Assembly: GCA_963699255.1 (NCBI GenBank)
Contig: OY969425.1
Location: 840,001-872,000 of the forward strand
Length of the DNA: 32,000 nt
Source of the DNA: an uncultured bacterium
GTDB lineage: Bacteria > Margulisbacteria > WOR-1 > CAVSGV01
Direction of reading: 5' to 3'
This document shows, piece by piece, positions 13,112 through 28,580 of the stretch (positions are counted from its first letter, which is position 1; each line of letters begins with the position of its first letter). The notes under the pieces were generated by a model. The model worked only from the letters and a program-made list of their open reading frames with translations, was not told the origin of the DNA and searched no databases. Made by a program: the position numbers and the translations under genes.

Positions 13112-14506
13112 TTAAATTACAGGCAGGTTGCTTTTACCCGTGAGGTATTTATCTATATAATGCGCCGCTTTTCTTCCTTCGCTGACGGCCCAGACTATGA
13201 GGGATTGGCCTCTATGCATGTCCCCGGCGGAAAATACCCCTTTTTTTGAGGTCATGAACTCCTCGTTCGTCCTGATGTTCCCTCTCTGATCAAGCTCCAA
13301 ACCAAGCTTTTCGATCAATCCTTTTTTATCCGGATGAAGGAATCCCATTGCCAGGATCACCATATCCGCCTCCAGCTCAAAAAGCTTCCCTTCTTTTTCG
13401 CATATCAGTTTCACGACTTTTCCGCTTTCACCCGCGATATTTTTGGTTGAAACCGACCAGTAGCGCTCGCATCCTTCGCCATGGCTGGTCGATGTCTTTA
13501 GAATATTCGGGTATTTTGGCCAGGGTTGATCGATGGGCCGCTTATCGGACGGCTTGGGCAAAAGCTCTATCTGTGTTACGCTCTTTGCTCCCTGACGGTT
13601 GGCGCATCCCACGCAATCCGCCCCCGTATCCCCTCCTCCGATTATCACGACTTTTTTACCTTTTGCATCCATCAGTTCCTTCTCGGGTATTTTATGGCCT
13701 GCCACTCTTTTATTTGACTGCGTCAGATAATCCAGGGCGAAATAGAAGCCGGAAAGCTCTCTTCCTTCAACCTTAAGGTCTCTCGGGACCCTGGATCCCC
13801 CGCTCAGGCAAACGGCATCGAACTCCTTCAATAGCTTTGAGACGGGATGATCGATACCGACATTCACGCCGGTAACAAACTCGATCCCTTCTTTTTCCCA
13901 GAACCGGATCCGCCGATCGAGTATCGATTTTTCAAGCTTGAAATCGGGAATGCCGTACCTCATTATCCCGCCTATCTTATCGTCCTTCTCAAATACGACG
14001 ACCTTATGCCCGGCCCTGTTCAGCTGCGCGGCGCATGAGAGCCCGGCCGGGCCGGAACCGATCACAGCCACGCTTTTTCCGGTCCTTTTTACAGGCGGCT
14101 TCGACTTTACCAGGCCATTTTTGAATGCGTATTCAATTATCGCAAGCTCGTTATCCCTTATGGTTACCGGGTCATCGTTCACGCCCAGAACACATGCATA
14201 CTCACATAGCGCGGGGCAAATTCTGCCCGTTATCTCCGGGATATTGTTCGTCGCGTCAAGAAGCTGAAAAGCCTTATCCCAAAGCCCGTTGAACACGCTG
14301 TCGTTCCATTCGGGGATATAATTCCCGACCGGACATCCCCAGTTGCAGAACGGCGTTCCGCAATCCATGCAGCGGGAAGTCTGCTCCCTGGAATCCCTCT
14401 CGCTCCTCGCGACCGCGACGTCCTTATAATCTTTCACGCGTTCGCACGGCTGCCGGTATTCAGAGTTTTTTCTTTTGAACTTTAAAAACCCTTTTATGTC
14501 ACCCAT
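13112..14506 (-). CDS. gltD: Glutamate synthase small (beta) subunit, NAD(P)H-dependent
   Basis: Motifs include CMDCGTPFC, the Cys cluster CPALCEYAC, and FAD/NAD folds (VAVIGSGPAGLSCA, VVIIGGGDTGADC). I set the start at ATG 14506, which has SD GGAGG 7 nt upstream and overlaps the gltB stop as ATGGGTGA. Confidence 0.93.
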   Translation of the reverse strand: MGDIKGFLKFKRKNSEYRQPCERVKDYKDVAVARSERDSREQTSRCMDCGTPFCNWGCPVGNYIPEWNDSVFNGLWDKAFQLLDATNNIPEITGRICPALCEYACVLGVNDDPVTIRDNELAIIEYAFKNGLVKSKPPVKRTGKSVAVIGSGPAGLSCAAQLNRAGHKVVVFEKDDKIGGIMRYGIPDFKLEKSILDRRIRFWEKEGIEFVTGVNVGIDHPVSKLLKEFDAVCLSGGSRVPRDLKVEGRELSGFYFALDYLTQSNKRVAGHKIPEKELMDAKGKKVVIIGGGDTGADCVGCANRQGAKSVTQIELLPKPSDKRPIDQPWPKYPNILKTSTSHGEGCERYWSVSTKNIAGESGKVVKLICEKEGKLFELEADMVILAMGFLHPDKKGLIEKLGLELDQRGNIRTNEEFMTSKKGVFSAGDMHRGQSLIVWAVSEGRKAAHYIDKYLTGKSNLPVI

Positions 14507-17500
14507 CCAAGACCTCCGTAAGACCGGATTCCTCTGCCAGCTCTTTTTCCTTCCTGCCCGCAGGCAGGCCGGCAAGCACCCGCTTGTACTCTGCGGGCAT
14601 TACCTTAACGAATTTTCTCGTTTCGTTCTCGAAATTATCCAGGATCTTTTTTGCCAAGGGACTCTTTGTATGCCTGTAATGGTTATTGATCAGACCGCTG
14701 ATGATCTTTTTGTCTTCTTTTGAAACCTTTTCAAGTCCGACCATTTTCAAGTTGCACTTTTCGGCAAAATCACCGTATCGGTCATATACGTATGCTATGC
14801 CGCCCGACATTCCTGCGCCAAAGTTCCTGCCTGTACCGCCCAGAACAACCACATGGCCGCCTGTCATATACTCGCAGCCATGGTCTCCAACTCCTTCCAC
14901 CACCGCGTCAAGACCTGAATTCCTTATGCAGAACCTTTCTCCCGCAACCCCTCTAATATAAGCCTCTCCGGATATCGCGCCGTAGAAAGTCGTATTTCCG
15001 ATAATGATGTTCTTCTCGGACTCATACGTTGATTCCTTTGACGGATAAACTATTATCTTCCCGCCTGAAATGCCTTTGCCCACATAATCATTAGCCATCC
15101 CTTCAAGTTCAAGGGTAACGCCCTTTGCAAGCCAGGCCCCAAAGCTCTGACCGGCCACGCCGCTGAATTTGAACCGGATGGTATCTTCGGGAAGACCTTC
15201 TTCTCCGTAGAGCCTGCATATCTCGCCGCTGAGCATGGCTCCCACAGTGCGGTTCGTATTATTAATGAAGACTTCTCCTCTCACAGCACTGCGATCTTTC
15301 AGGGCCGGAGAAGCCATTTCGATGAGCTTTTTGTCGAGAACTTTGTCAATGCCATGAATCTGGGGGATCGTGCACCTGACATCTGCATTTTTGGACGATT
15401 CCGGCCTGTAAAACACCCTTGAATAATCTATATCCTTCGCCTTCGACGGGACTATTGTCTTATCGGTCTCCAGAAGATCGCTTCTCCCGATCAGCTCGTC
15501 GAGGCTCGCCACCCCGATACCAGCCATGATCTCCCTTAATTCCTGGGCGATAAAAGTAAAATAATTGATTATGTATTCTGGTTTGCCTGTGAACCGATTC
15601 GAAAGCTCCTCGTCCTGCGTCGCAACCCCCACGGAGCAGTTATTGAGATGGCAATGTCTGAGCATGACGCAGCCTAATACGATCAGCACCGCGGTGCAAA
15701 ATCCAAATTCCTCGGCTCCCAGCATTGCGGCGATGGCAACATCCCGTCCCGTCCTCATCTGGCCGTCAGTCTGAAGCCTTACTCTGGAGCGAAGGTTGTT
15801 CATAATAAGGGTCTGATGAGTTTCGGAAAGCCCCAGCTCCCAGGGCAAACCCGCGTTCTTTATCGAGCTTACGGGAGAAGCGCCGGTCCCGCCGTCACCG
15901 CCCGATATCAGAATCATGTCCGCATGCCCTTTCGCGACACCGGCTGCAATGGTCCCGACGCCGATCTCAGACACAAGTTTGACAGATATCCTTGCCTTTG
16001 GATTAACGTTCTTAAGGTCGAATATCAGCTGGGCGAGATCTTCTATCGAATAAATATCATGATGCGGAGGTGGTGATATCAGCGTAACCCCGGGAGTCGT
16101 ATATCTGGTCTTTGCTATTACCTCGCTCACTTTATGGCCGGGAAGCTGGCCTCCTTCTCCCGGCTTTGCGCCCTGGGCCATCTTTATCTGGATCTCATCG
16201 GCATTTACCAGGTAATTCGCGGTCACGCCGAACCTGCCGGATGCTACCTGCTTTATCGCGCTTCTCTTCAGATCCCCGTTCGGCATAGGCTTAAAGCGCT
16301 GAGGGTCTTCGCCGCCTTCACCGGTGTTCGACCTCCCGCCAATCCTGTTCATTGCGATCGCTATCGTTTCATGCGCGGACTTGCTTATGGAGCCAAAGCT
16401 CATTGCTCCGACCGCAAAACGCTTCAATATGGACCGGACAGGCTCCACTTCTTCTATGGGTATCGGCCTTGTCCTGCCTTTTGATATCTTTATCAGGCTC
16501 CTGAGCGTCGTCGGATTTTTTGATTGATCGTTGATGAGGCACGAGAACTCATTATATTTTGCCTGGTCATTATTCCTGACCGCATCCTGAAGCGCGGCGA
16601 TCGTCTCGGGATTCCAGAGATGGAATTCGCCGTCACGTTTCCACTGATACACGCCACCCGTAGGCAGATAGGTTATGCCAAGCGCCTTATCTTCATAGGC
16701 TTTGCCATGCCGCATGATCGTCTCCGTCGCTATTTCTTCCATCCCTGCCCCGCCTATCCTTGAAGGCGTCCCTTCAAAATATCTGTCAATGAACTCATCA
16801 TTTAATCCCAGCGCCTCAAAGATCTGCGAGCCCCTGTAGCTGTTCAATGTGGAAATTCCCATTTTTGAAAGTATCTTCTCCACTCCACTCATCACGGCCT
16901 TAATGTAATTGGAGCCCGCCGTTTTTGCATCTATCGTAATTTCCCCCTCAACGGCAAGCGAGGAGACCGCTTCATATGCCAGATAAGGGTTGACGGCATC
17001 CGCGCCGTAACCAAAAAGAAGTGCGAAATGATGCGTTTCTCTTGTTTCGCCGCTTTCCGCAATTATCCCCACCCTGGTACGGAGCGCCTTCCTTATTAGA
17101 TACTGATGGACGGCGGAAACCGCGAGCAGGGTCGGGATAGCCGCATTGTCCCTGTCAGCCCCTCTGTCGCTTAAAACAATGAACGTGTATCCTTTATTAA
17201 TGGCGTCTTCCGACTCCCTGCATATCCTTTCGATCGAATCACTGAAATCCTTTTGGCTTGATGATCTTCCGCCAAAGGCGGACCCCGACAAAGGGCGGGG
17301 AGAAAGTATGGAAATCGTCTTTGTCCTTAATCCGTCCATCTTTACAGCCCTTATCTTTTCAAGCTGTTCGTTGGTCAACACAGGCGATTTAAGCCTCAAT
17401 TTGCAGCAGTGTTTAGGCCCTTCATCAAGCATGTTATCCTGCGGCCCGATGTAGCTTTCCATGCTCATAACGATCTCTTCCCGTATTGGATCAATGGGAG

Positions 17501-19055
17501 GATTCGTTACCTGGGCAAAAAGCTGTTTGAAGTAATTATAAAGCAACTGGGGTTTCTTTGAAAAAACGGCATGCGGAGTGTCGTTGCCCATGGAGCCGAC
17601 CGGTTCTTTCGCTTTTTCAGCCATAGGCTTCAATATGAATTTAAGGTCCTCTCTCGTATACCCGAATATGTTGAGCAAGGTCGTCAAGTCTTCCCTGTTC
17701 TCCTCAAAAGCGCTTACTCTTGGAAGGTCGCTTAACTCTATCATCTCCTTCTCCAGCCAGGCGGAATACGGCCTTGAACTTGAAATGAAGCTTTTTATCT
17801 CTTCGTCATTTATTATCCGCCCCTGTTCAGTGTCGATATAGAGCATTTTCCCGGGTTCAAGCCTGCCGCTGAACGCGATGTCCTTTGGCGCGATATCAAG
17901 CACGCCGACTTCCGACGCCATCACAACTACGCCCTTTTCGGTGACTATATATCGGGCCGGACGCAACCCGTTCCTGTCGAGCACCGCTCCGATACGCGTC
18001 CCGTCAGTAAAAGCTATCGCCGCCGGACCATCCCAGGGCTCCATAAAGCAGGCATGGAATTTATAAAAATCTCTGAGCTTTTTATCCATCAGATCATTGT
18101 GCTCCCATGCCTGAGGGATAAGCATCATCATCGCGTGCGGAAGCGTCCTCCCGGAGAGGGCAAGCAGTTCAAAGACATTATCTATGGCCGCTGAATCGCT
18201 TCCGCCCGGCACGATCACCGGCTTGATCTTCCGTATGTCTTTGCCGAAAACTTCGCTCTCTATCTGTCCTTCGCGCGCCCTCATCCAGTTTATGTTCCCT
18301 CTCAAGGTATTGATCTCGCCGTTGTGAGCGATGAACCTGAACGGCTGTGACAGGTCCCATGTGGGAAAAGTGTTCGTGCTGTAGCGGGAATGCACGAGAC
18401 ATATGGCACTCTTGAACGAGTCGTCCTTCAGATCAGTAAAAAAACCTTCGACCTGTGCAGGCATCAGCAGGCCTTTATATGAAATGGTCCGAGAGGAGAG
18501 ATTTGTTATGTAAAGCCATATCTTTTTTGCGCTCGCCGCGCCTTCGATCTGTTTCCTTATGAGATACAGCTTCCTCTCGAACTGGAGCTGATCGGCAACT
18601 GTGCTGCCGATGAATACCTGCTCGATGACAGGCTGCGTTTTCCTTGCGGTGGCCCCGATATCCGTATCATCAACGGGTACCTGCCTCCAGCCGAGGAGCT
18701 CCTGTCCCTCAGCTTCAACGAACTTTTTAAAAAGATCCCTGCAGAACTCCCTTTCTTTTTGACCGGTCGGCAGGAACACCAATCCCGTCGCGTATCTGCC
18801 GGGTTCGGGAAGGTCTATCTTCACCGTTTTCCTGAAGAACTCATAAGGTATCTGTATTAGTATCCCCGCGCCGTCACCCGTCTTTGGGTCGGCACCCGTC
18901 GCGCCTCTGTGGGCCAGCCTTTTCAGCACCTCGATCCCCTGCTTTACGATCTCATTTGACCTTCTGCCGTCCACACTGCAGACAAATCCGACGCCGCAGC
19001 TATCGTGTTCGAAGTGCCGGTCATAAAGCCCGAATTTTTTTTCTGGATAAGGCAT
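14499..19055 (-). CDS. gltB: Glutamate synthase large (alpha) subunit
   Basis: The 1518-aa protein has an N-terminal Ntn amidotransferase domain (HDSCGVGFV), central and FMN-binding domains (GEGGE, KPGEGGQLPG) and a C-terminal GXGXG domain. Confidence 0.97.
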   Translation of the reverse strand: MPYPEKKFGLYDRHFEHDSCGVGFVCSVDGRRSNEIVKQGIEVLKRLAHRGATGADPKTGDGAGILIQIPYEFFRKTVKIDLPEPGRYATGLVFLPTGQKEREFCRDLFKKFVEAEGQELLGWRQVPVDDTDIGATARKTQPVIEQVFIGSTVADQLQFERKLYLIRKQIEGAASAKKIWLYITNLSSRTISYKGLLMPAQVEGFFTDLKDDSFKSAICLVHSRYSTNTFPTWDLSQPFRFIAHNGEINTLRGNINWMRAREGQIESEVFGKDIRKIKPVIVPGGSDSAAIDNVFELLALSGRTLPHAMMMLIPQAWEHNDLMDKKLRDFYKFHACFMEPWDGPAAIAFTDGTRIGAVLDRNGLRPARYIVTEKGVVVMASEVGVLDIAPKDIAFSGRLEPGKMLYIDTEQGRIINDEEIKSFISSSRPYSAWLEKEMIELSDLPRVSAFEENREDLTTLLNIFGYTREDLKFILKPMAEKAKEPVGSMGNDTPHAVFSKKPQLLYNYFKQLFAQVTNPPIDPIREEIVMSMESYIGPQDNMLDEGPKHCCKLRLKSPVLTNEQLEKIRAVKMDGLRTKTISILSPRPLSGSAFGGRSSSQKDFSDSIERICRESEDAINKGYTFIVLSDRGADRDNAAIPTLLAVSAVHQYLIRKALRTRVGIIAESGETRETHHFALLFGYGADAVNPYLAYEAVSSLAVEGEITIDAKTAGSNYIKAVMSGVEKILSKMGISTLNSYRGSQIFEALGLNDEFIDRYFEGTPSRIGGAGMEEIATETIMRHGKAYEDKALGITYLPTGGVYQWKRDGEFHLWNPETIAALQDAVRNNDQAKYNEFSCLINDQSKNPTTLRSLIKISKGRTRPIPIEEVEPVRSILKRFAVGAMSFGSISKSAHETIAIAMNRIGGRSNTGEGGEDPQRFKPMPNGDLKRSAIKQVASGRFGVTANYLVNADEIQIKMAQGAKPGEGGQLPGHKVSEVIAKTRYTTPGVTLISPPPHHDIYSIEDLAQLIFDLKNVNPKARISVKLVSEIGVGTIAAGVAKGHADMILISGGDGGTGASPVSSIKNAGLPWELGLSETHQTLIMNNLRSRVRLQTDGQMRTGRDVAIAAMLGAEEFGFCTAVLIVLGCVMLRHCHLNNCSVGVATQDEELSNRFTGKPEYIINYFTFIAQELREIMAGIGVASLDELIGRSDLLETDKTIVPSKAKDIDYSRVFYRPESSKNADVRCTIPQIHGIDKVLDKKLIEMASPALKDRSAVRGEVFINNTNRTVGAMLSGEICRLYGEEGLPEDTIRFKFSGVAGQSFGAWLAKGVTLELEGMANDYVGKGISGGKIIVYPSKESTYESEKNIIIGNTTFYGAISGEAYIRGVAGERFCIRNSGLDAVVEGVGDHGCEYMTGGHVVVLGGTGRNFGAGMSGGIAYVYDRYGDFAEKCNLKMVGLEKVSKEDKKIISGLINNHYRHTKSPLAKKILDNFENETRKFVKVMPAEYKRVLAGLPAGRKEKELAEESGLTEVLDG

Positions 19056-19056
19056 T

Positions 19057-19278
19057 TTAACCGCTCCTGATCATACCGTATTTTTTAAGTTTTGACCTTA
19101 ATGTATTTCTGTTTATCCCGAGGATGTGCGCGGCCCTCATCTGATTGCCTTTCGTGTATTCCATTAACTTGATCAAAAGAGGTTTTTCCACCGAATCGGT
19201 CAAGAAGCGATATACCTTTCCCTCATTTTCCTTGAAGAAAAGCTCATTGATCTCTGATATTGCTTTTTCCAGATCCAT
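19057..19278 (-). CDS. Stand-alone Fis-family HTH DNA-binding protein (73 aa)
   Basis: VEKPLLIKLMEYTKGNQMRAAHILGINRNTLRSKLKKYGM closely mirrors the Fis/NtrC C-terminal HTH. ATG 19278 has SD GGGGGTGA (the track start is a GTG at 19287). Its stop lies 1 nt before the gltB ATG. Confidence 0.8.
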   Translation of the reverse strand: MDLEKAISEINELFFKENEGKVYRFLTDSVEKPLLIKLMEYTKGNQMRAAHILGINRNTLRSKLKKYGMIRSG

Positions 19279-19314
19279 CTTGATCACCCCCGCACGCGTG
19301 GCCTCCGAACGGAT

Positions 19315-19331
19315 TGCCTAAAAATCAGGCA
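19315..19331. promoter_or_regulatory. 17-bp palindromic operator, motif A copy 1 (TGCCTAAAAATCAGGCA), upstream of the fis-like-gltBD operon
   Basis: The half-sites TGCCT/AGGCA are perfect around an AT-rich 7-nt spacer. Related copies lie at 23306-23322 and 26252-26268. Confidence 0.5.
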
Positions 19332-19340
19332 GCCGCCCCC

Positions 19341-19370
19341 AAAAAAGAGCGAGACGTCGTTGTCCCGCTC
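19341..19370 (-). terminator. Intrinsic terminator of glnA (copy 1)
   Basis: On the - strand, GAGCGGGAC/aacgac/GTCTCGCTC forms a 9-bp stem with one mismatch, followed by TTTTTT. It starts 12 nt after the glnA stop. Confidence 0.7.
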
Positions 19371-19381
19371 CCCCGAACTTT

Positions 19382-20707
19382 TTACAGTATCGGGAAATAT
19401 TTCTTTATTTCATACTCGGTGACTTGGATCCTGAATTCATCCCATTCTTTTTTCTTGACCGATATGAATCTTGAAAAACTGTGCTCCCCGAGAACCTCTC
19501 TCAACAGCTCGCTTCCCTCAGCTAATTTAATGGCGTCTCCAAGGCTTGCCGGAAGCGATTTTATGCCTCCCTCCTGTCTCTCCTCTTCAGTAAGATGATA
19601 CAGGTTTAGCTCCATCGGGTCGGGCAGCTTATATCCCTCTTCAATGCCCTTTAATCCCGCTGAAAGCATTACCGCAAATTGCAGATAAGGATTCCCGGAT
19701 GGATCCGGGCATCTTAGCTCCATGCGGGTAGCGACTTCCTTGCCCGGCAGGTACATCGGGACCCTGACGAGAGCCGATCTGTTGCGCCTTGACCACGCGA
19801 TATAGACGGGAGCTTCGTAGCCGGGGACCAGTCTTTTATATGAATTGACCCATGGGGCAAGTACCGAGATTATTTCCGGAGCGTGCTTTAATATCCCCGC
19901 AATATATGACTTGCCCACATCAGACAAATGATATTTGTCCTTCGCGTCAAAGAAAGCATTGGCCTTTCCTTTGAACAACGACTGATGGCAGTGCATTCCG
20001 CTTCCGTTCTGGCCGAACAATGGCTTTGGCATGAAGGACGCGTATACGCCGTTCTTTGATGCTATTTCCTTGACGGTCAATCTATAAGTGACGACATTGT
20101 CAGCCATCTTAAGCCCGTCGTCATATCTCATATCGATCTCATGTTGGGACGGAGCAACCTCATGATGGGAATATTCAACATTTATCCCCAGCTTCTTAAG
20201 GCACAGGACGGTCTCTCTTCTCAGATCGGAGGCCATATCAAGCGGGGTCAGGTCAAAATATCCGCCTTCATCCAGTATTTCGGGACTCTGACCGTTCTTG
20301 AAATAGAAATATTCAAGTTCCGGCCCGACATAATAATGGTCAAACCCCATCTTCTTCATCTTTGCAAGCGCCCTCTTCAGGACATACCTCGGATCCCCTT
20401 CATAAGGCTTTCCTCCCGGCTGAAGTATATCGCATATCATCCTGGCTACCGCTTTCTCCTGCGGCCTCCATGGAAGGATCTGAAATGTATCCGGATCCGG
20501 CATAGCTATCATGTCCGACTCCTCGATCGCCTGGAAACCGGTAATTGAAGATCCGTCAAACCCCATTCCCTCCGTAAGCGCTCCCTCTAATTCATCCTTC
20601 CCGATCGCGAAACTTTTCAATATCCCGTTAATATCCGTGAACCAAAGCCTTATGAACTCAACATCATTATCCTTTACCGCTTTAAGTATTTCCTCTTTTG
20701 TTGTCAT
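19382..20707 (-). CDS. glnA: Glutamine synthetase, type I (short GSI-alpha-like form, 441 aa)
   Basis: Motifs include FTDINGILKSF, GFDGSSITGF, HHEVAPSQHEID, NGSGMHCHQSL, APWVNSYKRLVPGYEAP and NRSALVRVP. Confidence 0.95.
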   Translation of the reverse strand: MTTKEEILKAVKDNDVEFIRLWFTDINGILKSFAIGKDELEGALTEGMGFDGSSITGFQAIEESDMIAMPDPDTFQILPWRPQEKAVARMICDILQPGGKPYEGDPRYVLKRALAKMKKMGFDHYYVGPELEYFYFKNGQSPEILDEGGYFDLTPLDMASDLRRETVLCLKKLGINVEYSHHEVAPSQHEIDMRYDDGLKMADNVVTYRLTVKEIASKNGVYASFMPKPLFGQNGSGMHCHQSLFKGKANAFFDAKDKYHLSDVGKSYIAGILKHAPEIISVLAPWVNSYKRLVPGYEAPVYIAWSRRNRSALVRVPMYLPGKEVATRMELRCPDPSGNPYLQFAVMLSAGLKGIEEGYKLPDPMELNLYHLTEEERQEGGIKSLPASLGDAIKLAEGSELLREVLGEHSFSRFISVKKKEWDEFRIQVTEYEIKKYFPIL

Positions 20708-20734
20708 TTTTGTTCCCTCCTTGCCCTCAGTATT

Positions 20735-20750
20735 AGCAATTTTCTCTCCA
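20735..20750 (-). promoter_or_regulatory. Sigma-54 (-24/-12) promoter of glnA copy 1
   Basis: The - strand reads TGGAGAGAAAATTGCT, against the consensus TGGCACGNNNNTTGCW. GG and GC are at the exact consensus spacing, and the site lies about 28 nt upstream of the ATG and its SD GGAGGG. Confidence 0.65.
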
Positions 20751-20776
20751 AAAAATTTTTGCCGTATTAACGCGAA

Positions 20777-20785
20777 ATTATACCA
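20777..20785 (-). promoter_or_regulatory. Extended -10 sigma-70 promoter upstream of the glnA sigma-54 promoter
   Basis: The - strand reads TGGTATAAT (TGn plus a perfect TATAAT). I found no good -35. Confidence 0.45.
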
Positions 20786-20800
20786 GGATAATAATATAGT

Positions 20801-20848
20801 ATATACATTTATGTATTAATTTATATTAAATAATACAATTTTGTATTA
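20801..20848. promoter_or_regulatory. Two 18-bp palindromes (motif B) 30 bp apart; candidate enhancer or operator sites for glnA
   Basis: The palindromes are ATATACA-TTTA-TGTATTA (20801-20818) and TAATACA-ATTT-TGTATTA (20831-20848). Their centres lie about 86 and 116 nt upstream of the predicted sigma-54 TSS. Confidence 0.45.
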
Positions 20849-20850
20849 AA

Positions 20851-21189
20851 TTATATTGCAATAACTCCTGTTTCGCCTGTCCGTATCCTGACAATATAAG
20901 ATACATCCGATACAAAGATCTTTCCGTCGCCGATACTGCCTGTGGAACAGATAGAACATATCGTCTTTATGACGTCATCGACATCCTTATCAAGCAGCAC
21001 AAGTTCAAGCTTTACTTTAGGCAAAAATTCAACATTGTACTGGCCGACCCTCCACTCCAGCGTAATGCCCTTCTGTTTTCCTCTTCCTTTTACCTCGGTA
21101 ACGGTCATTCCATGAAACCCTTTCGCATCAAGCGCCTCCCTTAGCTCTTCCAGTTTTTCCGGGCGGATTATAGCTTCGACCTTCTTCAT
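20851..21189 (-). CDS. glnK: P-II nitrogen regulatory protein
   Basis: The 112-aa protein aligns end to end with GlnB/GlnK (MKKVEAIIRPEKL..TVTEVKGRGKQKG...GDGKIFV..V...RIRTGE), and T-loop Tyr51 is present. It sits directly downstream of amtB. Confidence 0.95.
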   Translation of the reverse strand: MKKVEAIIRPEKLEELREALDAKGFHGMTVTEVKGRGKQKGITLEWRVGQYNVEFLPKVKLELVLLDKDVDDVIKTICSICSTGSIGDGKIFVSDVSYIVRIRTGETGVIAI

Positions 21190-21205
21190 TTATCTCACCT
21201 CCTGT

Positions 21206-22420
21206 TTATAATACGCTTTCCGCGTGCTGGGATATATCCAGGCCGACAAGCTCTTCATTCTCCTTAACCCTCAACCCGACTAACATATCAACAGCCTTCG
21301 CAAGTACCAGCGTAACAACGAACGCAAAAGAAGCCGTAGCAACAACAGCAACAAGCTGCACCCATACCTGTCCCGGATTCCCAAAAATAAGGCCGTTCGC
21401 ACCGCCGGGATTTATCGCTTTGCTTGCAAAGATGCCTGTCGCGATAGCGCCCCACGCGCCGCCCATCCCATGGCATGCGAAAGCATCCAGCGATTCATCG
21501 ATCCTAAGGGTCATTCTCAGGACTATGACATAATAAGAAATCACGGAAGCAACCGCTCCTATTGCTATTGCTGAAAGCGGGTCCACAAAACCTGACGCCG
21601 GAGTGATAGCAACAAGCCCCACAACCGCACCCGTTGCAACACCAAGAACGCTTGGTCTTCTGTGTATCCAGCTCAGCAGCATCCACATTGTCGCCGCCGC
21701 AGCCGCAGCGGTATTGGTAACAACAAAAGCTGAAGCTGCGATCCCGTTGGCAGCCAGGGCGGATCCTCCGTTGAAGCCGAACCAGCCGAACCAGAGAAGT
21801 ACCGCGCCAAGAACAACGATCGGGATATTGCTCGGCTCCATGTTATCCTTTCCGTAGCCTTTTCTTTTTCCTATGATCAAAGCGATAGCCAGGGCTGACA
21901 TACCTGCCGTAACATGTACGACAGTGCCGCCGGCAAAATCAAGCGCTCCCAGAGTCCTGAGCCATCCGCCTACTCCCCAGACCCAATGGGCCACCGGATC
22001 ATAAACGATCGTTGCCCATAAAGCCGAGAACAAAAGGAATGAGGAAAATTTTATCCTTTCAACAAAAGCGCCCACTATCAATGAAGGGGTCACTATCGCG
22101 AAAGCCGCCTGGAATATCATAAAGACCAGGGCCGGAATGGTAGCCGCATAACCTACATCCGGGAGCTGTCCTACGCCTATCAAACCAAGATATTTAAAAT
22201 TACCGATTAAACCTCTTATTGTCGGACCAAAGGCCAGTGTATACCCGAAAAGCACCCATTGAAGGCTTATCACCATAAGGATCGCGAAACACATCATGAT
22301 CGTGGAAAGGATATTTTTCTTCCTTACCATGCCGCCGTAAAAGAAACCGACTGCCGGAGTCATTAATATTACCAGAGCTGCGGAAACAAGGACCCAAGCT
22401 GTATCTCCACTATTTATCAT
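21206..22420 (-). CDS. amtB: Ammonium transporter
   Basis: Amt family motifs are present ([31 protein letters not shown]). ATG 22420 has SD GGAGGAGG; the track start 22429 is a TTG. Confidence 0.95.
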
Positions 22421-22438
22421 TTTAACCAACCTCCTCCT

Positions 22439-23161
22439 TTATACATTTATATCAAGCTGCGTGGTCACGACAGGATTGGCCGAAGCACCCGGAGCATGCC
22501 CATTATTAAACGTGCCATAACCGAATATGACCGATGTGTTCGGAGCAAAAGCATATGAAAGCCCCCCGAACAACGCTCCATTTACGGAATAGCCGGATGC
22601 ATAATCGACGCAGGCCCAGATCTTATCGGTGATAGTTTTGTCCCAGGTAAAGATAAATCCGGTGCTCTGCGGGTCGCCGAATTCATCCACCAGAACGTCC
22701 CTGTTCCCCGAATAATAGCCGGCAGACAACCTTCCGATGCCGAAAGTCTTCGCCATGAGCGAGTAAACGATGTTCTGATCGGAGCTTTTCACGCCGTCCA
22801 GAGTGTCGAATCCGAAGTTGAAAAATCCAAGAGCCAAGGCGGGCAAAATGCTGCTTTCGGGGATGCCGTATTTCGCGTTGAATGTGAACTGGTTGGAACT
22901 GGGCAAGAAAGAATCGATGCCAAACTCAGCTCCTGGCAACAAACCATAAGTTAAATTTACGTCGGTCGGGAAAAAAGTCCCTCCAAAATTAGAGATCGGC
23001 CATGCCGTGGTAAAATAGCTATCTATTCCGAAGTGAACTGTCCCCAAAGCCTGGATGTCTGTTGACGGGTTCCATATTTGAGTTGATGGAGTGGCAAAGA
23101 CCGATCTTTGGAACGTCAGGCAGATAGCCGCAATGAACAATATTTTTAATGCCCTTCTCAT
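22439..23161 (-). CDS. Small outer-membrane beta-barrel (porin-like) protein, first gene of the amtB-glnK operon
   Basis: It has a signal peptide (MRRALKILFIAAICLTFQRSVFA) and alternating aromatic/Gly-rich strands (GLSYAFAPNTSVIFGYGTF). I prefer ATG 23161 (SD GGAGGAAGGTGA); an alternative in-frame ATG is at 23197. The stop lies 18 nt before the amtB start. Confidence 0.6.
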   Translation of the reverse strand: MRRALKILFIAAICLTFQRSVFATPSTQIWNPSTDIQALGTVHFGIDSYFTTAWPISNFGGTFFPTDVNLTYGLLPGAEFGIDSFLPSSNQFTFNAKYGIPESSILPALALGFFNFGFDTLDGVKSSDQNIVYSLMAKTFGIGRLSAGYYSGNRDVLVDEFGDPQSTGFIFTWDKTITDKIWACVDYASGYSVNGALFGGLSYAFAPNTSVIFGYGTFNNGHAPGASANPVVTTQLDINV

Positions 23162-23240
23162 CTGGTTTTTCACCTTCCTCCGAAAATGCTTTTTCATCTT
23201 CTTTCTTGTTCTTTGATAACATGATGTCGATCAGTAAAGT

Positions 23241-23256
23241 AGCAATTTTCTTGCCG
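23241..23256 (-). promoter_or_regulatory. Sigma-54 (-24/-12) promoter of the porin-amtB-glnK operon
   Basis: The - strand reads CGGCAAGAAAATTGCT, with GG and GC at consensus spacing. It shares GAAAATTGCT with the glnA sigma-54 promoter. Confidence 0.7.
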
Positions 23257-23305
23257 AAGGGCTTTTGTGCTTAAAGAGGCCGAAAATCTGACAAGCGCGT
23301 GGATC

Positions 23306-23322
23306 TGCCTAAATTTTAAACA
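23306..23322. promoter_or_regulatory. Motif A copy 2 (TGCCTAAATTTTAAACA), about 60 bp upstream of the -24 element of the amtB sigma-54 promoter
   Basis: It shares TGCCT and the TAAATTTTA core with 26252-26268; the right half-site is degenerate. It overlaps the stop codon of the activator gene. A motif B-like ACAATATTGT follows at 23323-23332. Confidence 0.45.
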
Positions 23323-24827
23323 ACAATATTGTAATTCTTTATCTTGTAACCGAGCATTCTTTCGGTGATGCCGAGGGCTTTCGCGGCGGATTTCTGGGTC
23401 TTGTATTTTGCGAGGGCGTCGACGATGCGCTGTTTTTCTATCGATCCGATCAGCGCCGGAAGCGTCATACCTTCGGGCGTGATACTGACTTCTGACGGCT
23501 TCTGAAGGCTTACCGGAAGCTCCGACTGTGATATCAGCTCTTTCCTGCACAGGACCACGGCTCTCTCTATGACATTCTCAAGCTCCCTCACATTACCGGG
23601 CCAGCTGTAAGATAAGAGCATATCAAGAGCGGCACGGTTTATTCCCTTTATCTTCTTCTTGTTCTCTTTGGCGTATTTTTCTATAAAGTGATCGGCGAGG
23701 AGAGGGATATCCTCTTTCCTGTCCCTTAGCGGAGGCAGGATCACCGGAAAAACATTAATGCGGTAATACAGGTCTTCACGGAACCGCCCATCGCGCACCA
23801 TTTTCTCAAGATCCCTGTGAGTGGCGCATATCACTCTCACATCCACTTTTATGGTCTGCGTCCCGCCAAGCCTTTCGAATTCCTTCTCCTGCAGGACCCT
23901 CAACAATTTAACCTGGGTGGAAAGCGACATATCGCCGATCTCGTCAAGGAAAAGCGTCCCGCTGCTTGCCAGTTCGAACCTTCCGGGTTTCCTTTCAAGC
24001 GCTCCTGTAAATGCGCCTCTTTCATATCCGAAAAGTTCCGATTCAAGCAGGTTCTCGGGAAGCGACGCGCAGGCGACTTTGATGAAGGGTTTATCGGCCC
24101 TCGGGCTTGAATAATGAATGGCTGAGGCGACCATTTCCTTTCCCGTGCCGGATTCGCCTGTAATAAGGACCGTTGCCTGTGATTCCGCCACCTGAGCTGC
24201 GATGCTGAAGACCGAAGCCATAAGAGGCGAACTGTAGATCATATTGCCGAATTTGTATTTGCCTTTCAGCTCCTGCCTCAGCTTGATGTTCTCGGATACC
24301 ACAGCCTGCTTTTCTTTTTCCGCAAGCTCCCTTATCTTCACCGCCTGTCCCACCATTGAAGCGATAATAGTAAGGAGCTTAACGTCCTCTTCATAAGAAA
24401 TATCGCCCTTGAAAAGATGGTCCGCGGAAAGAGCGCCTATGACCTTGTTCCCGACCTTGATAGGGACGCAGAGGAAGGCATATTTCCGCGCTTCCAGGTC
24501 CCTCGCTTTTGTCTTATTGAGAAATGACGGGTCAGCGCCAACATCCTTAATTACCATCGGAAGTCCCGTCTCGACGACTTTGCCTGTGATCCCTTCGCCT
24601 ATTTTGTAGCGTCCCCTTTCTTTTTCCTGCACCGAGAGTCCCTGCGCTACTTCAATATGAAGCTCGTTCGTATTCGGATCCACCAGCGTTATTGTGCCTC
24701 TCTGCATTTCAAGGGAGTCGGATAGGACCTGAAGGATGGATTCCAAGGCTTGCTGCAGGTTAAGAGCCGAAGCAAGGGCTTCGCTTATCTCAACGAGTAC
24801 TTTTACCTTTATGTCCCTTGTAGGCAT
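23316..24827 (-). CDS. Sigma-54-dependent transcriptional activator with an N-terminal GAF domain (NifA/NtrC-family bEBP)
   Basis: The domain order is a GAF region, an AAA+ domain with GESGTGKE, GAFTGA and a Walker B (LFLDEIGD), and a C-terminal Fis-type HTH (KSAAKALGITERMLGYKIKNY). Confidence 0.92.
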   Translation of the reverse strand: MPTRDIKVKVLVEISEALASALNLQQALESILQVLSDSLEMQRGTITLVDPNTNELHIEVAQGLSVQEKERGRYKIGEGITGKVVETGLPMVIKDVGADPSFLNKTKARDLEARKYAFLCVPIKVGNKVIGALSADHLFKGDISYEEDVKLLTIIASMVGQAVKIRELAEKEKQAVVSENIKLRQELKGKYKFGNMIYSSPLMASVFSIAAQVAESQATVLITGESGTGKEMVASAIHYSSPRADKPFIKVACASLPENLLESELFGYERGAFTGALERKPGRFELASSGTLFLDEIGDMSLSTQVKLLRVLQEKEFERLGGTQTIKVDVRVICATHRDLEKMVRDGRFREDLYYRINVFPVILPPLRDRKEDIPLLADHFIEKYAKENKKKIKGINRAALDMLLSYSWPGNVRELENVIERAVVLCRKELISQSELPVSLQKPSEVSITPEGMTLPALIGSIEKQRIVDALAKYKTQKSAAKALGITERMLGYKIKNYNIVV

Positions 24828-24835
24828 ACTACATT

Positions 24836-24864
24836 ATTGTAGTATGTTAATACATTTTTGTCAA
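24836..24864 (-). promoter_or_regulatory. Sigma-70 promoter of the sigma-54 activator gene; predicts a leaderless or nearly leaderless mRNA
   Basis: The - strand reads TTGACA, 17 nt, TACAAT, then only 8 nt before the ATG. There is no SD. Confidence 0.6.
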
Positions 24865-24868
24865 GAAG

Positions 24869-26209
24869 CTATAATGTTTCTAGGTATTTGTCGATCTCCC
24901 ATGGCGTTATCTGCATCCTGTAGTCATCGAACTCCGCAGCCTTTGCCGCGACAAAATGTTCAAAAGCGTGCTTGCCAAGCGCCTGTTTCACAACCTCATC
25001 CTTTTTAAGCTCTTCCACGGCTCTGGCAATAGAAAAAGGAAGCATGTCTATCTTGTATTCGTTAAGTTTGGCCTGGTCGAATTCATAAACGTCCTCTTCC
25101 ACGGGTTTTGGAGGCTTCATTCCCCTCTTTATTCCATCAAGGCCGGCATAAAGCATCACGGCAAATGCAAGATAAGGATTGCAGGAAGGATCGGGGCATC
25201 TGAGTTCAAGCCTTGTTGACTGCTCCCTTCCCGGAGAGTATCTCGGTATCCTTATAAGCGCTGACCTGTTGATCTGCGCCCAGCAGATATATACAGGGGC
25301 TTCATATCCGGAAACAAGCCTTTTGTATGAGTTCACCGTAGGCGCGAGGATGGAAGTAAGAGCTTTTGCATGGAAAAGCTCCCCGGCCATGAAATTATAG
25401 GCGATCTCGGATAGTTTGTATTTATCTTTGGCGTCAAAGAAAGCGTTCTTTTCACCCTTGAACAAAGATTGATGGACGTGCATTCCGCTGCCGGCCTGTT
25501 TATAGAGCGGCTTCGGCATGAACGAAGCATACAGCCCGTGGTCCGAGGCAATGGACTTTATCACATACTTGAGCGTTATCGTATTATCGGCAGAAGAAAG
25601 CGCATCGGAATATTTGACGTCTATTTCGTGCTGGCCGGGACCGCATTCGTGGTGCGACATCTCCGGGACCATTCCCATCTTCTCCAGAGCAAAGATTATA
25701 TCTTCGCGCACGTCGCTGGCAAGGTCCTTCGCCGGATAATCAAAATAACCTCCGATATCGTGAGGGGTGGTCGTGATGCGCCCGTCGTCTTTTTTCATGA
25801 GATAGAACTCCACTTCAGGGCCTGTATAGAACGCGAATCCAAGTTTACCGGCTTCGGCGACCGCCCTTTTCAGTATCGATCTCGGGTCGCCTTCAAAAGG
25901 CTCACCTTCAGGCGTATGAACGTCGCATATGAAGCGGGCGGATTCCTTGCCCTCCACCTTCCACGGTATGATCTGGTAAGTATTCGGGTCAGGAACAAGG
26001 ATCATGTCAGATTCGCATATCCTGACAAATCCCTGTATGGAGGAGCCATCGAACCATATGCCCTTATCAAGGATGTCGGATAGCCTTTCCACGGGGACCG
26101 TCACGCTTTTGATCATTCCCAGAATATCGGTGAACTGAAGAAAAATGAATTTGATCTTGTCGGACTTTGCTTTTGCCAGAACTTCCTTGGCCAGTGCGGA
26201 TAACGCCAT
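24869..26209 (-). CDS. glnA: Glutamine synthetase, type I, second paralog (446 aa)
   Basis: It carries the same GSI motifs as copy 1 (WFDGSSIQGF, HHECGPGQHEID, AGSGMHVHQSL, APTVNSYKRLVSGYEAP, NRSALIRIP), with SD AAGGGAGG. Confidence 0.95.
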   Translation of the reverse strand: MALSALAKEVLAKAKSDKIKFIFLQFTDILGMIKSVTVPVERLSDILDKGIWFDGSSIQGFVRICESDMILVPDPNTYQIIPWKVEGKESARFICDVHTPEGEPFEGDPRSILKRAVAEAGKLGFAFYTGPEVEFYLMKKDDGRITTTPHDIGGYFDYPAKDLASDVREDIIFALEKMGMVPEMSHHECGPGQHEIDVKYSDALSSADNTITLKYVIKSIASDHGLYASFMPKPLYKQAGSGMHVHQSLFKGEKNAFFDAKDKYKLSEIAYNFMAGELFHAKALTSILAPTVNSYKRLVSGYEAPVYICWAQINRSALIRIPRYSPGREQSTRLELRCPDPSCNPYLAFAVMLYAGLDGIKRGMKPPKPVEEDVYEFDQAKLNEYKIDMLPFSIARAVEELKKDEVVKQALGKHAFEHFVAAKAAEFDDYRMQITPWEIDKYLETL

Positions 26210-26240
26210 ACTAACGCCTCCCTTTATTTTAGATGTTTTG

Positions 26241-26269
26241 ATTATATAATATGCTTAAATTTTAGGCAA
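26241..26269 (-). promoter_or_regulatory. Sigma-70 promoter of glnA copy 2, with motif A copy 3 embedded at 26252-26268
   Basis: The - strand reads TTGCCT, 17 nt, TATAAT. The palindrome TGCTTAAATTTTAGGCA (+ strand) covers the -35 element and most of the spacer. Confidence 0.65.
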
Positions 26270-26274
26270 TCGGA

Positions 26275-26310
26275 ATAAAAAACGGCGCCCCGGCATATTG
26301 TCGGGGCGCC
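26275..26310 (-). terminator. Intrinsic terminator of gdhA
   Basis: The - strand forms a perfect 9-bp GC stem, GGCGCCCCG/acaatatgc/CGGGGCGCC, followed by GTTTTTTATT. Confidence 0.85.
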
Positions 26311-26332
26311 GCATACTTACCTGGGACCTTTT

Positions 26333-27670
26333 CTACACTAAACCCTGGTCGAGCATTGCATCGGCAACTTTTATGAACCCGGCTATGTTCGCGCCGTCCA
26401 TGTAATTAATGAAGTCACCCTGTTTCCCCTGTTTGACGCAATTCTCATGGATATTGATCATTATCTCATGAAGTCTCTTGTCGACTTCTTCCCTGCCCCA
26501 GCTCAACCTCATGCTGTTCTGGCTCATCTCGAGCCCCGATGTCGCCACTCCTCCGGCATTCGCCGCTTTTGCCGGTCCGTAAAGGATCTTTGCCTTAAGG
26601 TAGACCTCGATCGCTTCCGGGGTTGACGGCATGTTCGCGCCTTCCGCAACGCACATGCATCCATTCTTAATGAGAGCTTCCGCATCGGCGCCGCTCACTT
26701 CGTTCTGCGTCGCGCACGGGAGAGCTATGTCGCATTCGATATGCCACGGCCTTTTCCCTTCCAGGAATTGGCATCCGTACTTATTGGCATATTCTTTTAT
26801 TCTGCCCCTCTTATTGTTCTTGAGATCCAGCACGTATGCCAGCTTTTCTTCGGTTATCCCATGCGGATCATGGACCGTTCCGTGCGAGTCTGATAATGTA
26901 ATGACCTTTGCCCCAAGCTGCATCGCCCTTTCAGCCGCATACTGAGCGACATTGCCGGAACCGGAGATCGTAACCGTTTTACCCTTGAACGACTGTTTCC
27001 TGGTCTTGAGCTGTTCTTCGGCAAAATAAACCAGGCCGTATCCGGTCGCTTCCGGCCTTATCAGGCTTCCGCCCCAGCCAAGCCCCTTTCCTGTCAGAAC
27101 GCCGGTAAATTCATTCCTCAGTCTCTTGTACTGGCCGTACATGAAACCTATTTCTCTTCCTCCAACGCCAATATCACCGGCCGGGACATCCGTGTCCGGA
27201 CCGATGTGCTTGGAAAGCTCCGTCATGAAGCTCTGCAAGAATCTCATTACTTCGTTATCCGACTTGCCCTTCGGGTCAAAATTGGATCCGCCTTTTCCTC
27301 CGCCCATCGGGAGCGTGGTCAGGCTGTTCTTGAAAACCTGCTCGAATCCCAGGAATTTCAACAGACCAAGATAAACCGTGGGATGCAAACGAAGTCCCCC
27401 TTTATATGGCCCTATGGCGCTGTTGAATTCCACCCTGTATCCTTTATTTACCTGTACTTCTCTGCTGTCATCCATCCACGGCACCCTGAACATTATCACT
27501 CTTTCCGGCTCCACTATCCTCTCGAGTATCTTTGCTTTTTCATATTTCGGGTTCTTTTCCAGGAACGGAAGAAGCGATTTCACTACTTCCTCTACAGCCT
27601 GATGGAACTCCGGCTCCCCAGGATTATCCGCAACTAACTTACTCATAAAAGCTTTTACTTTTGTCGCCAT
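26333..27670 (-). CDS. gdhA: Glutamate dehydrogenase (hexameric, NADP-type family)
   Basis: Motifs include KGGLRLHP, LPMGGGKGGS (catalytic Lys region) and the Rossmann motif GSGNVAQYAA. SD is AAAGGAGAG. Confidence 0.95.
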   Translation of the reverse strand: MATKVKAFMSKLVADNPGEPEFHQAVEEVVKSLLPFLEKNPKYEKAKILERIVEPERVIMFRVPWMDDSREVQVNKGYRVEFNSAIGPYKGGLRLHPTVYLGLLKFLGFEQVFKNSLTTLPMGGGKGGSNFDPKGKSDNEVMRFLQSFMTELSKHIGPDTDVPAGDIGVGGREIGFMYGQYKRLRNEFTGVLTGKGLGWGGSLIRPEATGYGLVYFAEEQLKTRKQSFKGKTVTISGSGNVAQYAAERAMQLGAKVITLSDSHGTVHDPHGITEEKLAYVLDLKNNKRGRIKEYANKYGCQFLEGKRPWHIECDIALPCATQNEVSGADAEALIKNGCMCVAEGANMPSTPEAIEVYLKAKILYGPAKAANAGGVATSGLEMSQNSMRLSWGREEVDKRLHEIMINIHENCVKQGKQGDFINYMDGANIAGFIKVADAMLDQGLV

Positions 27671-27818: not shown

Positions 27819-28580
27819 TTATTGCGGGTTTGCTTCCTGCGCGGATATCAGCTCTTCGGCGATCTCTTTCATGGATTTTCTGCTGTCCATGCTCTGTTTT
27901 TGCAGCTTCCTGTAAGCCTCTTCCTCAGACAGCCCTTCACTTTTCATGATCATGCCCTTTGCTTTCTCGGTCAGCTTTCTTTCCTCCAGCCTTACGGCGA
28001 GCATTTCCTTCTCTTCTGCAAGCTTCCTGTTCGATATCGCTATCGCCGCCTGATTCGCGACCGCGGAAACAAGCCTGATCTCGCCGGCGGTGAACTTGTG
28101 CGGCCTGGAAGTGTAGCTGTTCAATACCCCAATAGCCTTTCCTTTCACGATGAGAGGGACCGCAAGCATTGAACAGAGTTTTTCTTTTTTTGCTATCTCC
28201 GGGAACATGTAATCCGGTTCCTTTTTTACGTCAAGCACCGTTATCGGCTTTTTTTTGCTGACCGCCTTCCCGCTGATCGACTGGCCGACCTTTACATTCG
28301 GCTTGTCTGTGTAACTATCGCTTAAGCTCTGCGTGGCGGCAAGCCGGAGCTCTTTCTCGTTTTCACTTAGCAACATCAGGGAGCATATCTTGGAGCCCAT
28401 GACCTCAGCCGTCATCGCGACAATTATCTTCAGGATATCATCAAGGTACATGTCCGAAACGATGGCGGTGCTTACCTTGCCAAGAGTTTCAATTTCTTTT
28501 TGGAGCGATCGGGATGATTTTGTCATTGATATATTTCCTAAATTTTCCCTGACGATAGATTGGCTGGGAACTCGAGTCAT
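27819..28580 (-). CDS. GAF-ANTAR RNA-binding antiterminator-type regulator
   Basis: The GAF region is LDDILKIIVAMTAEVMGSKICSLMLL...GKAIGVLNSY. The C-terminal ANTAR domain is ERKLTEKAKGMIMKSEGLSEEEAYRKLQKQSMDSRKSMKEIAEELI. ATG 28526 (SD AGGAAA) is an alternative start. Confidence 0.85.
   Translation of the reverse strand: MTRVPSQSIVRENLGNISMTKSSRSLQKEIETLGKVSTAIVSDMYLDDILKIIVAMTAEVMGSKICSLMLLSENEKELRLAATQSLSDSYTDKPNVKVGQSISGKAVSKKKPITVLDVKKEPDYMFPEIAKKEKLCSMLAVPLIVKGKAIGVLNSYTSRPHKFTAGEIRLVSAVANQAAIAISNRKLAEEKEMLAVRLEERKLTEKAKGMIMKSEGLSEEEAYRKLQKQSMDSRKSMKEIAEELISAQEANPQ

Follow-up and report, generated by a model that had tools for sequence, protein, structure and literature searches.

Layout of the nitrogen gene cluster

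The window analyzed here is a stretch of 32,000 nucleotides (nt; G000:C1:840001-872000) in a host genome of 1.77 Mb that consists of a single contig with 47.5% G+C. Its nitrogen genes are all on the minus strand, and among them lie three copies of a 17-base-pair (bp) palindrome, here termed Motif A (consensus TGCCTA-W5-TAGGCA, with TGCCTAAAATTTAGGCA as the perfect-palindrome form). Motif A is a real, shared and non-random operator at nitrogen genes. The genes, the three sites, and the promoters and terminators next to them are given below in the direction of transcription, with window positions; no strand is assigned to the palindromes, and their sequences are those of the gene strand.

27819-28580, minus strand, gene of a GAF-ANTAR protein
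26333-27670, minus strand, gdhA
26277-26312, minus strand, intrinsic terminator of gdhA (folding, -26.9 kcal/mol, followed by U6)
26252-26268, Motif A site 3, TGCCTAAAATTTAAGCA
26241-26269, minus strand, sigma-70 promoter of glnA-2, TTGCCT-17-TATAAT (10 of 12 consensus matches)
24869-26209, minus strand, glnA-2
23316-24827, minus strand, gene of a NifA-like activator with GAF, sigma-54 AAA+ and helix-turn-helix (HTH) domains by domain search, assigned to Motif B (see below) and not to Motif A
23306-23322, Motif A site 2, TGTTTAAAATTTAGGCA
23241-23256, minus strand, sigma-54 promoter (-24/-12) of the porin-like gene, amtB and glnK, CGGCAAGAAAATTGCT
22439-23197, minus strand, gene of a porin-like protein of 252 amino acids (aa)
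21206-22429, minus strand, amtB
20851-21189, minus strand, glnK
19382-20707, minus strand, glnA-1
19341-19376, minus strand, intrinsic terminator of glnA-1 (folding, -20 kcal/mol, followed by U6)
19315-19331, Motif A site 1, TGCCTGATTTTTAGGCA
19057-19278, minus strand, gene of a Fis-like HTH protein of 73 aa, which heads fis-gltB-gltD and is the proposed binder of Motif A
14499-19055, minus strand, gltB
13112-14575, minus strand, gltD

Site 1 lies between the glnA-1 terminator and the Fis-like gene, 9 nt past the U-tract of the former and 36 nt ahead of the ATG of the latter, and a single base separates the fis-like stop codon from the gltB ATG. The stop codon of the GAF-sigma-54 activator gene overlaps with site 2, and 59 nt separate the centre of the site from the -24 GG of the porin-amtB-glnK promoter downstream. 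Site 3 begins 8 nt past the U-tract of the gdhA terminator; in the glnA-2 promoter it spans five letters of the -35 hexamer plus the adjoining 12 of the 17 spacer positions. Both terminators were established by folding; a terminator scan picked up neither.

The palindrome had been noted in an earlier reading of this DNA (the original prediction), and much of what was said there about the sites themselves proved exact: the sequences and coordinates of the three 17-mers, the core shared by sites 2 and 3 (TAAATTTTA), and the position of site 2, placed at ∼60 bp from the -24 element. The TGC-N11-GCA frame had been likened to that of the enteric NtrC site, and it does have the geometry of the published site, TGCACC(A/T)4TGGTGCA (PMC4987338).

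Motif A stands out from the genome background

Four sets of sequences were used for comparison: the 41 nearest genomes, 65 genomes of the same class, metagenome relatives, and 80 loci from other phyla. The bare frame TGCCT-N7-AGGCA was rejected as evidence by itself: with 6 exact, 52 one-mismatch and 623 two-mismatch places in the genome (681 with at most two mismatches), it has no discriminating power. A one-mismatch IUPAC scan of the relatives returned 64 places vs. 48 in the control, which is nearly equal. Only a matrix and the exact pattern are informative.

The matrix was built solely from the glnA-2 promoter sites of five relatives from three families (G004, G040, G022, G034 and G028), with the host genome excluded. 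When the whole host genome was scanned with these foreign sites, sites 3, 1 and 2 took ranks 1, 2 and 3 (24.7, 21.1 and 20.2 bits, respectively), and the best score left within the window was 10.1 bits. Matches of at least 19 bits numbered 0–1 in 19 of 20 locally shuffled genomes and four in the remaining trial. Each of the three top matches is in intergenic DNA or at the end of a gene, and all fit within 7 kb; the naive probability that the second and third best matches fall that near the best is 6e-5. At a threshold of 17 bits the genome holds six matches, three of which are the sites themselves. Across the 65 class genomes, the exact pattern TGCYTAWWWWWTARGCA occurred 15 times, and the reversed control pattern was not found. 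The original prediction had proposed a full-genome scan with a matrix built from the three sites; with the matrix of foreign sites, the three nitrogen sites lead the genome, and the observation of a recurring motif is confirmed.

The fourth-best match in the genome (TGCTTGAACTTTAGGCA, G000:220439-220455, 19.0 bits) is flanked by hisG and an acyl-CoA ligase-like gene, and it overlaps with a sigma-70-like promoter (TTGAAC-17-CATAAT). Its counterpart in genome G001 stands over the same promoter but is shifted by 10 bp, so that orthology of the site is not clean.

Conservation of the sites in relatives

In the glnA-2 promoters of the five relatives that supplied the matrix, the same palindrome starts with the second letter of the -35 box and stops 5 nt short of TATAAT, and the flanking letters vary while the palindrome stays. 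The placement of site 3, with TATAAT 5 nt after Motif A, is kept in seven further genomes in all (the same five, G048, and the metagenome relative L226, in which the site is a perfect palindrome). This result agrees with the earlier proposal that site 3 is positioned to occlude the sigma-70 promoter of glnA-2.

A stand-alone fis-like gene was found in 14 of the 41 nearest genomes; across the class, the number is 17 of 65 genomes. Motif A was found 3–36 nt ahead of the fis-like start codon in 11 of those 14 genes, representing five families, and these copies sit directly after the terminator of the upstream gene; the order of terminator and motif seen at site 1, and a similar spacing, recur at the fis-like loci of relatives. 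Four additional metagenome relatives also carry the motif before the fis-like gene (17–26 bits), and over both groups the distance from motif to start codon ranges from 3 to 44 nt.

At site 2, family relatives keep only the AT-rich core and the right arm, embedded in a module made of an enhancer box, 2 nt, a sequence of the TGTWTAAAWTTTAAGCA form, 4 nt and a second enhancer box. In other families, glnA-1, amtB and a GSIII-like gene have strong Motif A copies at their sigma-54 promoters. The expectation that the sites would be conserved in orthologous promoters is thus supported for sites 1 and 3, which are kept across several families, and only half supported for site 2, with its one arm and AT-rich core.

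A separate palindrome occupies the enhancer position

Nearly all orthologous sigma-54 promoters are preceded by one or two copies of a second palindrome, TACA-N4-TGTA (Motif B). Strict copies (TACAWWWWTGTA) number only five in this genome, all of them intergenic. The copies, and the boxes next to site 2, are:

20804-20815 and 20834-20845, strict Motif B, before glnA-1
24830-24841, strict Motif B, before the GAF activator gene
G000:887515 and G000:966604, strict Motif B outside the window
23325-23336, no strand assigned, enhancer box (Motif B), TTACAATATTGT on the gene strand, 2 nt upstream of site 2 and presumably bound by the GAF-sigma-54 activator
23291-23301, degenerate second enhancer box, CACGCGCTTGT

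Motif B is presumed to be the natural site of the GAF activator, orthologues of which (57–79% identity) are encoded in all 41 genomes searched, including those that lack Motif A.

At sigma-54 promoters, Motif A is always accompanied by TACA-N4-TGTA boxes. In relatives it falls between the Motif B enhancer and the promoter; in this genome enhancer boxes flank site 2 on both sides, i.e., the site is inside the enhancer of the porin-amtB-glnK promoter. The distance from the centre of Motif A to the -24 GG is 19–20 nt in six cases and 31, 47, 55, 59 (the window) and 89 nt in the others, and the enhancer boxes are 42 and 72, or 54 and 96, nt upstream of the Motif A centre, near whole helical turns. 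This placement suits a bending or governing protein, and not an enhancer. An NtrC-type enhancer consists of two or more sites ∼100–140 nt upstream of a sigma-54 promoter; the Motif A sites are single and nearer, and it is Motif B that is found in the enhancer positions.

The original prediction had taken Motif A as the enhancer-distance site of a sigma-54 promoter, a role that fits TACA-N4-TGTA instead. The accompanying idea of one regulator that activates uptake and represses glnA-2 survives in part: there is one shared operator, with an occluding site at glnA-2, but the enhancer is another palindrome and the likely binder of Motif A has no AAA+ domain.

One of the two strict Motif B copies outside the window is 85 nt upstream of a sigma-54-like promoter (G000:966689), suggesting a further target of the GAF activator.

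The Fis-like protein as candidate binder

The 73-aa product of the gene that follows site 1 matches Pfam HTH_8 with 54.4 bits (cut-off 22). Its best match among solved structures is E. coli Fis (residues 46-97, E=7e-14), and the DNA-binding domain of NtrC is matched with E=5e-3. An AlphaFold model was obtained with a predicted local distance difference test score (pLDDT) of 89.9; when its fold was compared with known structures, the top 31 matches were all Fis, with Fis chains aligned over 68–74 columns (∼72) and NtrC-type domains over only 37–50, corresponding to the HTH. Identity with E. coli Fis is 43–46% over ∼72 residues, spanning helices A-D. The N-terminal beta-hairpin arms of Fis, which stimulate DNA invertases, have no counterpart: the model is helical from residue 3, and in 73 aa there is no room for the first ∼25 residues of Fis.

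Residues Asn84, Arg85, Thr87 and Arg89 of Fis are retained, with GINRNTLRSKLKKYGM paired with GINRGTLRKKLKKYGM in the alignment. Asn84 and Arg85, and also Thr87 and Arg89, have DNA-contact roles in Fis, which bends DNA by 65-70 degrees (PMC4784862). The high-affinity Fis site is a 15-bp AT-rich core bounded by G at -7, contacted by Arg85, and C at +7; further determinants are a pyrimidine-purine step at positions 3-4, a purine at +4 and T/A at position 8 (PMC4784862). In Motif A, G-7 and C+7 are present, positions 3-4 form a T-A step in both halves, the centre is made up of A and T only, and positions 8 are T/A; in the form T-GCCTAAAWTTTAGGC-A it carries all the published high-affinity determinants.

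Three confident HTH_8 proteins are encoded in this genome, and among them only the Fis-like protein has the GINRNTLR helix:

Fis-like protein, recognition helix GINRNTLRSK
REC-type activator, recognition helix GIHRTTLISK
GAF activator, recognition helix GITERMLGYK

Genomes with the exact motif are enriched in stand-alone fis-like genes (8 of 12 vs. 9 of the 53 others, p=0.0013, with kinship not corrected for), an association that is only indicative because kin are not independent.

As a cross-check, 80 loci from other phyla (372 kb in total) were selected solely by the helix LG[IL]NRNT and scanned with the Motif A matrix, and ten matches of at least 17 bits were obtained. Among them, one falls in a Latescibacterota locus in which glnK, glnA, the motif, fis and gltB follow in this order; two stand in tandem before a Micavibrio ntrBC operon; and in four Betaproteobacteria a site stands just before the gene upstream of fis (dusB-like by eye). 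A pattern search of public species genomes for the fis-like protein returned mostly ordinary Fis and activator C-termini of other phyla and left out close relatives. Literature searches for a Fis-like nitrogen regulator found nothing relevant.

The Fis-like protein, already named as a candidate for an electrophoretic mobility shift assay in the original prediction, emerges as the best candidate binder. From the motif, the protein and their distribution, we predict that Motif A is the operator of a small nitrogen-assimilation regulon that part of this class, made up of uncultured bacteria with small genomes, has conserved, and that it is bound here by a dimer of the Fis-like protein; we give this reading a probability of roughly 0.6.

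Points against and competing explanations

Several observations weigh against this reading. By eye and by promoter scan, no convincing sigma-70 or sigma-54 element was found for fis-gltBD between the terminator and the start codon. Site 1 could also serve control of gltBD by any nitrogen regulator rather than autoregulation. In the closest relative, L226, site 2 has decayed to 12 bits. Good motifs are present at glnA-2, glnA-1 or amtB in G040 and G048 (genus g34) and in G011, where no stand-alone fis-like gene was found, so that another protein must bind there; conversely, the fis-like genes of G002 (two copies) and G016 have no motif before them. The Fis-like protein has no sensor domain to couple it to nitrogen status. 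Finally, the genomes compared are kin, and the counts overstate their independence.

These exceptions to the association of gene and motif would be accommodated if Motif A were bound by another regulator, not yet recognisable, and if its position before the Fis-like gene reflected control of gltBD only. An NrpR-like protein is indeed encoded beside the cluster in metagenome relatives: the archaeal-type nitrogen repressor (PF08461 and PF01995; L232:1-95, L233:1-94) adjoins a PPDK-like gene and the GAF activator. In this genome, however, neither NrpR nor a small MerR-type protein of the GlnR/TnrA kind was found, the sole MerR_1 match being weak and inside a 312-aa frame. Moreover, gltB lacks a Motif A ahead of it in genomes without the fis-like gene (L040, L043, L050), and the motif recurs in other phyla beside unrelated genes that carry the same recognition helix. 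We consider this explanation unlikely.

The NtrC-type activator of this genome (REC-AAA+-HTH, G000:1704456-1705835) might instead bind Motif A, activating at sigma-54 promoters and repressing at sigma-70 promoters, as both NtrC and Geobacter GnfM activate and repress (PMC2995071). Motif A shares the 17-bp TGC...GCA dyad with an AT-rich centre with enteric NtrC sites (PMC4987338), and the tandem sites of the Micavibrio ntrBC operon, as well as the three genomes with the motif and no stand-alone fis-like gene, point in the same direction. One of these three, G040, has a REC activator with the closest helix, GINRTTLIAK, and the motif-like AGCCTAATTTATTAGCA overlaps the start codon of its gene; an NtrC-type binder is plausible in the G040/G048 lineage. 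The REC activator of the genome studied here has a different helix (GIHRTTLISK), and its own sigma-54 promoter bears TTTCGACA-N6-TGTCGAAA and no Motif A. Two genomes of family f4 (G008 and G013) keep the activator, but no Motif A was found in the nitrogen loci of G013, in the glnA-2 promoter of G008 or in a pattern scan of G008. The sites themselves are single and not tandem; they are found ∼20 nt away from the -24 element or within a sigma-70 promoter, and those that belong to sigma-54 promoters are always accompanied by Motif B. As an explanation for the sites of the window, we find the REC activator quite unlikely, somewhat more so than a regulator not yet recognised.

The perfect inverted repeat TTTCGACA-N6-TGTCGAAA is ∼100 nt upstream of the sigma-54-like promoter of the REC activator gene (TGGTATAATAATTGCT, G000:1705866-1706000) and is probably the gene's own enhancer.

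That the GAF-sigma-54 activator binds both palindromes, with Motif A as a second class of its sites, is very improbable. The activator has an HTH_8 domain, and site 2 adjoins an enhancer box and extends into the 3' end of the activator gene; the activator's recognition helix, however, lacks Asn84 and Arg85, it is conserved also where Motif A is missing, and TACA-N4-TGTA accounts for its enhancers, including that before its own gene.

Finally, Motif A is hardly a chance AT-rich promoter sequence or an RNA hairpin, even though RNA folding of the palindrome is possible (-10.2 kcal/mol), site 1 is probably part of a transcript and is beside a ribosome-binding site, and TTGCCT at site 3 doubles as the -35 box: the genome rank, the clustering and the control pattern exclude chance, and two of the three sites (site 3 and the sigma-54 copy), like the sigma-54 copies of relatives, are upstream of their start sites. 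An RNA role is also unlikely in view of the arms, TGCCTA and TAGGCA, which are kept in sequence, with many uncompensated changes (TGCACA...TAGGCA, TGCCCG...TAGGCA) and no free covariation. An Rfam search of the window and three relatives returned one tRNA and no family matching Motif A.

Proposed mechanism and meaning

If the Fis-like protein is the binder, as we prefer, the sites suggest the following mechanism: (i) a dimer of the 73-aa protein would bind Motif A; (ii) at glnA-2, the dimer on the -35 box and spacer would block the sigma-70 promoter and hence repress it; (iii) at site 1, ahead of its own gene, it would exert feedback on fis-gltBD; and (iv) at sigma-54 promoters, a dimer beside or downstream of the Motif B enhancer would bend the DNA or compete with the GAF activator, and so tune activation. 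Lacking an AAA+ domain, the proposed binder cannot activate sigma-54 transcription by itself; the activator would be the GAF-sigma-54 protein, acting via TACA-N4-TGTA. A possible signal is the level of the Fis-like protein, which may be set by read-through from the sigma-54-driven glnA-1.

More tentatively, a sensor-less, cut-down Fis may be a dedicated second-tier nitrogen regulator in several uncultured phyla, with a feed-forward isozyme switch made from an architectural protein; we regard this wider view as possible and somewhat doubtful. Loci that combine the gene, the motif and gltB are seen in this class and in Latescibacterota. The GAF activator would set the level of the Fis-like protein, as the fis-like gene follows the sigma-54-driven glnA-1, and the Fis-like protein would in turn switch off the sigma-70 isozyme gene glnA-2 and, from between enhancer and promoter, cap or shape sigma-54 activation. 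In the lineage without a Fis-like gene, an NtrC-like activator with the same recognition helix might do the job.

Nitrogen control is well described in textbooks for Proteobacteria, Firmicutes, Actinobacteria, Cyanobacteria and Archaea; to our knowledge, it is essentially unknown in candidate phyla with small genomes. The analysis provides a defined 17-bp operator, an enhancer motif distinct from it and a named protein as candidate; each of the three can be synthesised and tested in vitro with no need for culture, and the Motif A matrix is ready for use in annotating the nitrogen regulons of related metagenome-assembled genomes. If the proposal is true, a Fis-family protein would act as a sequence-specific regulator dedicated to one pathway, unlike the known global nucleoid role of Fis, and a sigma-54 enhancer system would be coupled with a sigma-70 isozyme gene.

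Further observations in relatives

The glnA-2 orthologues of four relatives, each from a different family, begin with an in-frame extension of ∼128 aa at the N terminus, and no stop codon interrupts the frame ahead of the glutamine synthetase Met (L046:1031-2755 in G007; L058 from position 144 onward; L065 from 1129 onward; L057, minus strand). The extension contains a zinc-ribbon-like part (CxxC...CxxC) and then an HTH-like stretch, and a good ribosome-binding site precedes the internal ATG. Either a DNA-binding domain is fused to glutamine synthetase or two overlapping products are made.

The gltB leader of genomes without a fis-like gene (L040 ∼17650-17790, L043 ∼19300-19447, L050 ∼15080-15175) is conserved and looks structured, with two arms, one G-rich and one C-rich, that complement each other and a repeated 'cacctttg / caaaggtg' pair after them, and no Rfam family matched it. 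In two relatives (L228:14671-20216, L230:14707-20216) purF stands between gltB and gltD, followed by carB/carA, in an operon headed by the fis-like gene; these genes all encode glutamine-using enzymes.

Comparison with known systems

The TnrA/GlnR box of Bacillus (TGTNA-N7-TNACA) is read by a small MerR-type regulator. As in the proposed system, it is a 17-bp dyad at glnA and amtB, its regulator is small and has no ligand-binding domain, and glnA is repressed by covering of the promoter. A TnrA/GlnR box was rejected as an identity for Motif A, as the arms TGCCTA/TAGGCA differ and no small MerR-type protein was found in the genome.

IHF acts at sigma-54 promoters, e.g., nifH, glnHp2 and Pu, through the asymmetric consensus WATCAA-N4-TTR. 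Its location between the enhancer and the -24/-12 promoter, with helical phasing, is that of Motif A in relatives; in the window, the Motif A site is inside the enhancer. Two HU/IHF-family genes are present in this genome. An IHF site was likewise rejected, since by inspection the Motif A sites are symmetric palindromes without a match to WATCAA-N4-TTR; and unlike IHF, Motif A is limited to a few of the ∼20 sigma-54-like promoters that this genome has.

Enteric NtrC at glnAp1, glnAp2 and glnLp resembles the proposed system in the 17-bp TGC-N11-GCA dyad with its AT-rich centre, in an occluded sigma-70 promoter of glutamine synthetase, in sites near -45 between enhancer and sigma-54 promoter, and in a site at its own gene. 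Low-affinity NtrC 'governor' sites between enhancer and promoter were reportedly described by Atkinson et al. in 2002. Unlike NtrC, the proposed binder has neither a receiver nor an AAA+ domain, the GAF-type activator acts via another palindrome, and the sites are single. The nitrogen master regulator GnfM of Geobacter sulfurreducens has a Fis-type HTH, activates from upstream sites and represses where its site overlaps a promoter (gdhA) (PMC2995071). In contrast to the proposed binder, GnfM is a full REC-AAA+-HTH activator.

E. coli Fis shares with the proposed binder the fold of helices A-D, Asn84 and Arg85, the AT-rich 15-bp core with G-7 and C+7, and a site at its own gene, and it represses by sitting on promoters. 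The Fis-like protein differs from it in its length of 73 aa and in the missing N-terminal beta-hairpin arms, and the fis-like gene heads gltBD and does not follow dusB as in the E. coli dusB-fis operon. Unlike in E. coli Fis sites, positions 5 and 6 on each side of Motif A (CC, GG) are also conserved, which suggests a sharp operator and not a loose motif read by shape. Only about four good sites are present in the genome, all but one at nitrogen genes, as would be expected of a dedicated regulator and not of an abundant nucleoid protein. By analogy, the proposed system would combine the autoregulation of Fis with the NtrC logic of glnAp1/glnAp2, with DNA binding and activation split between two proteins.

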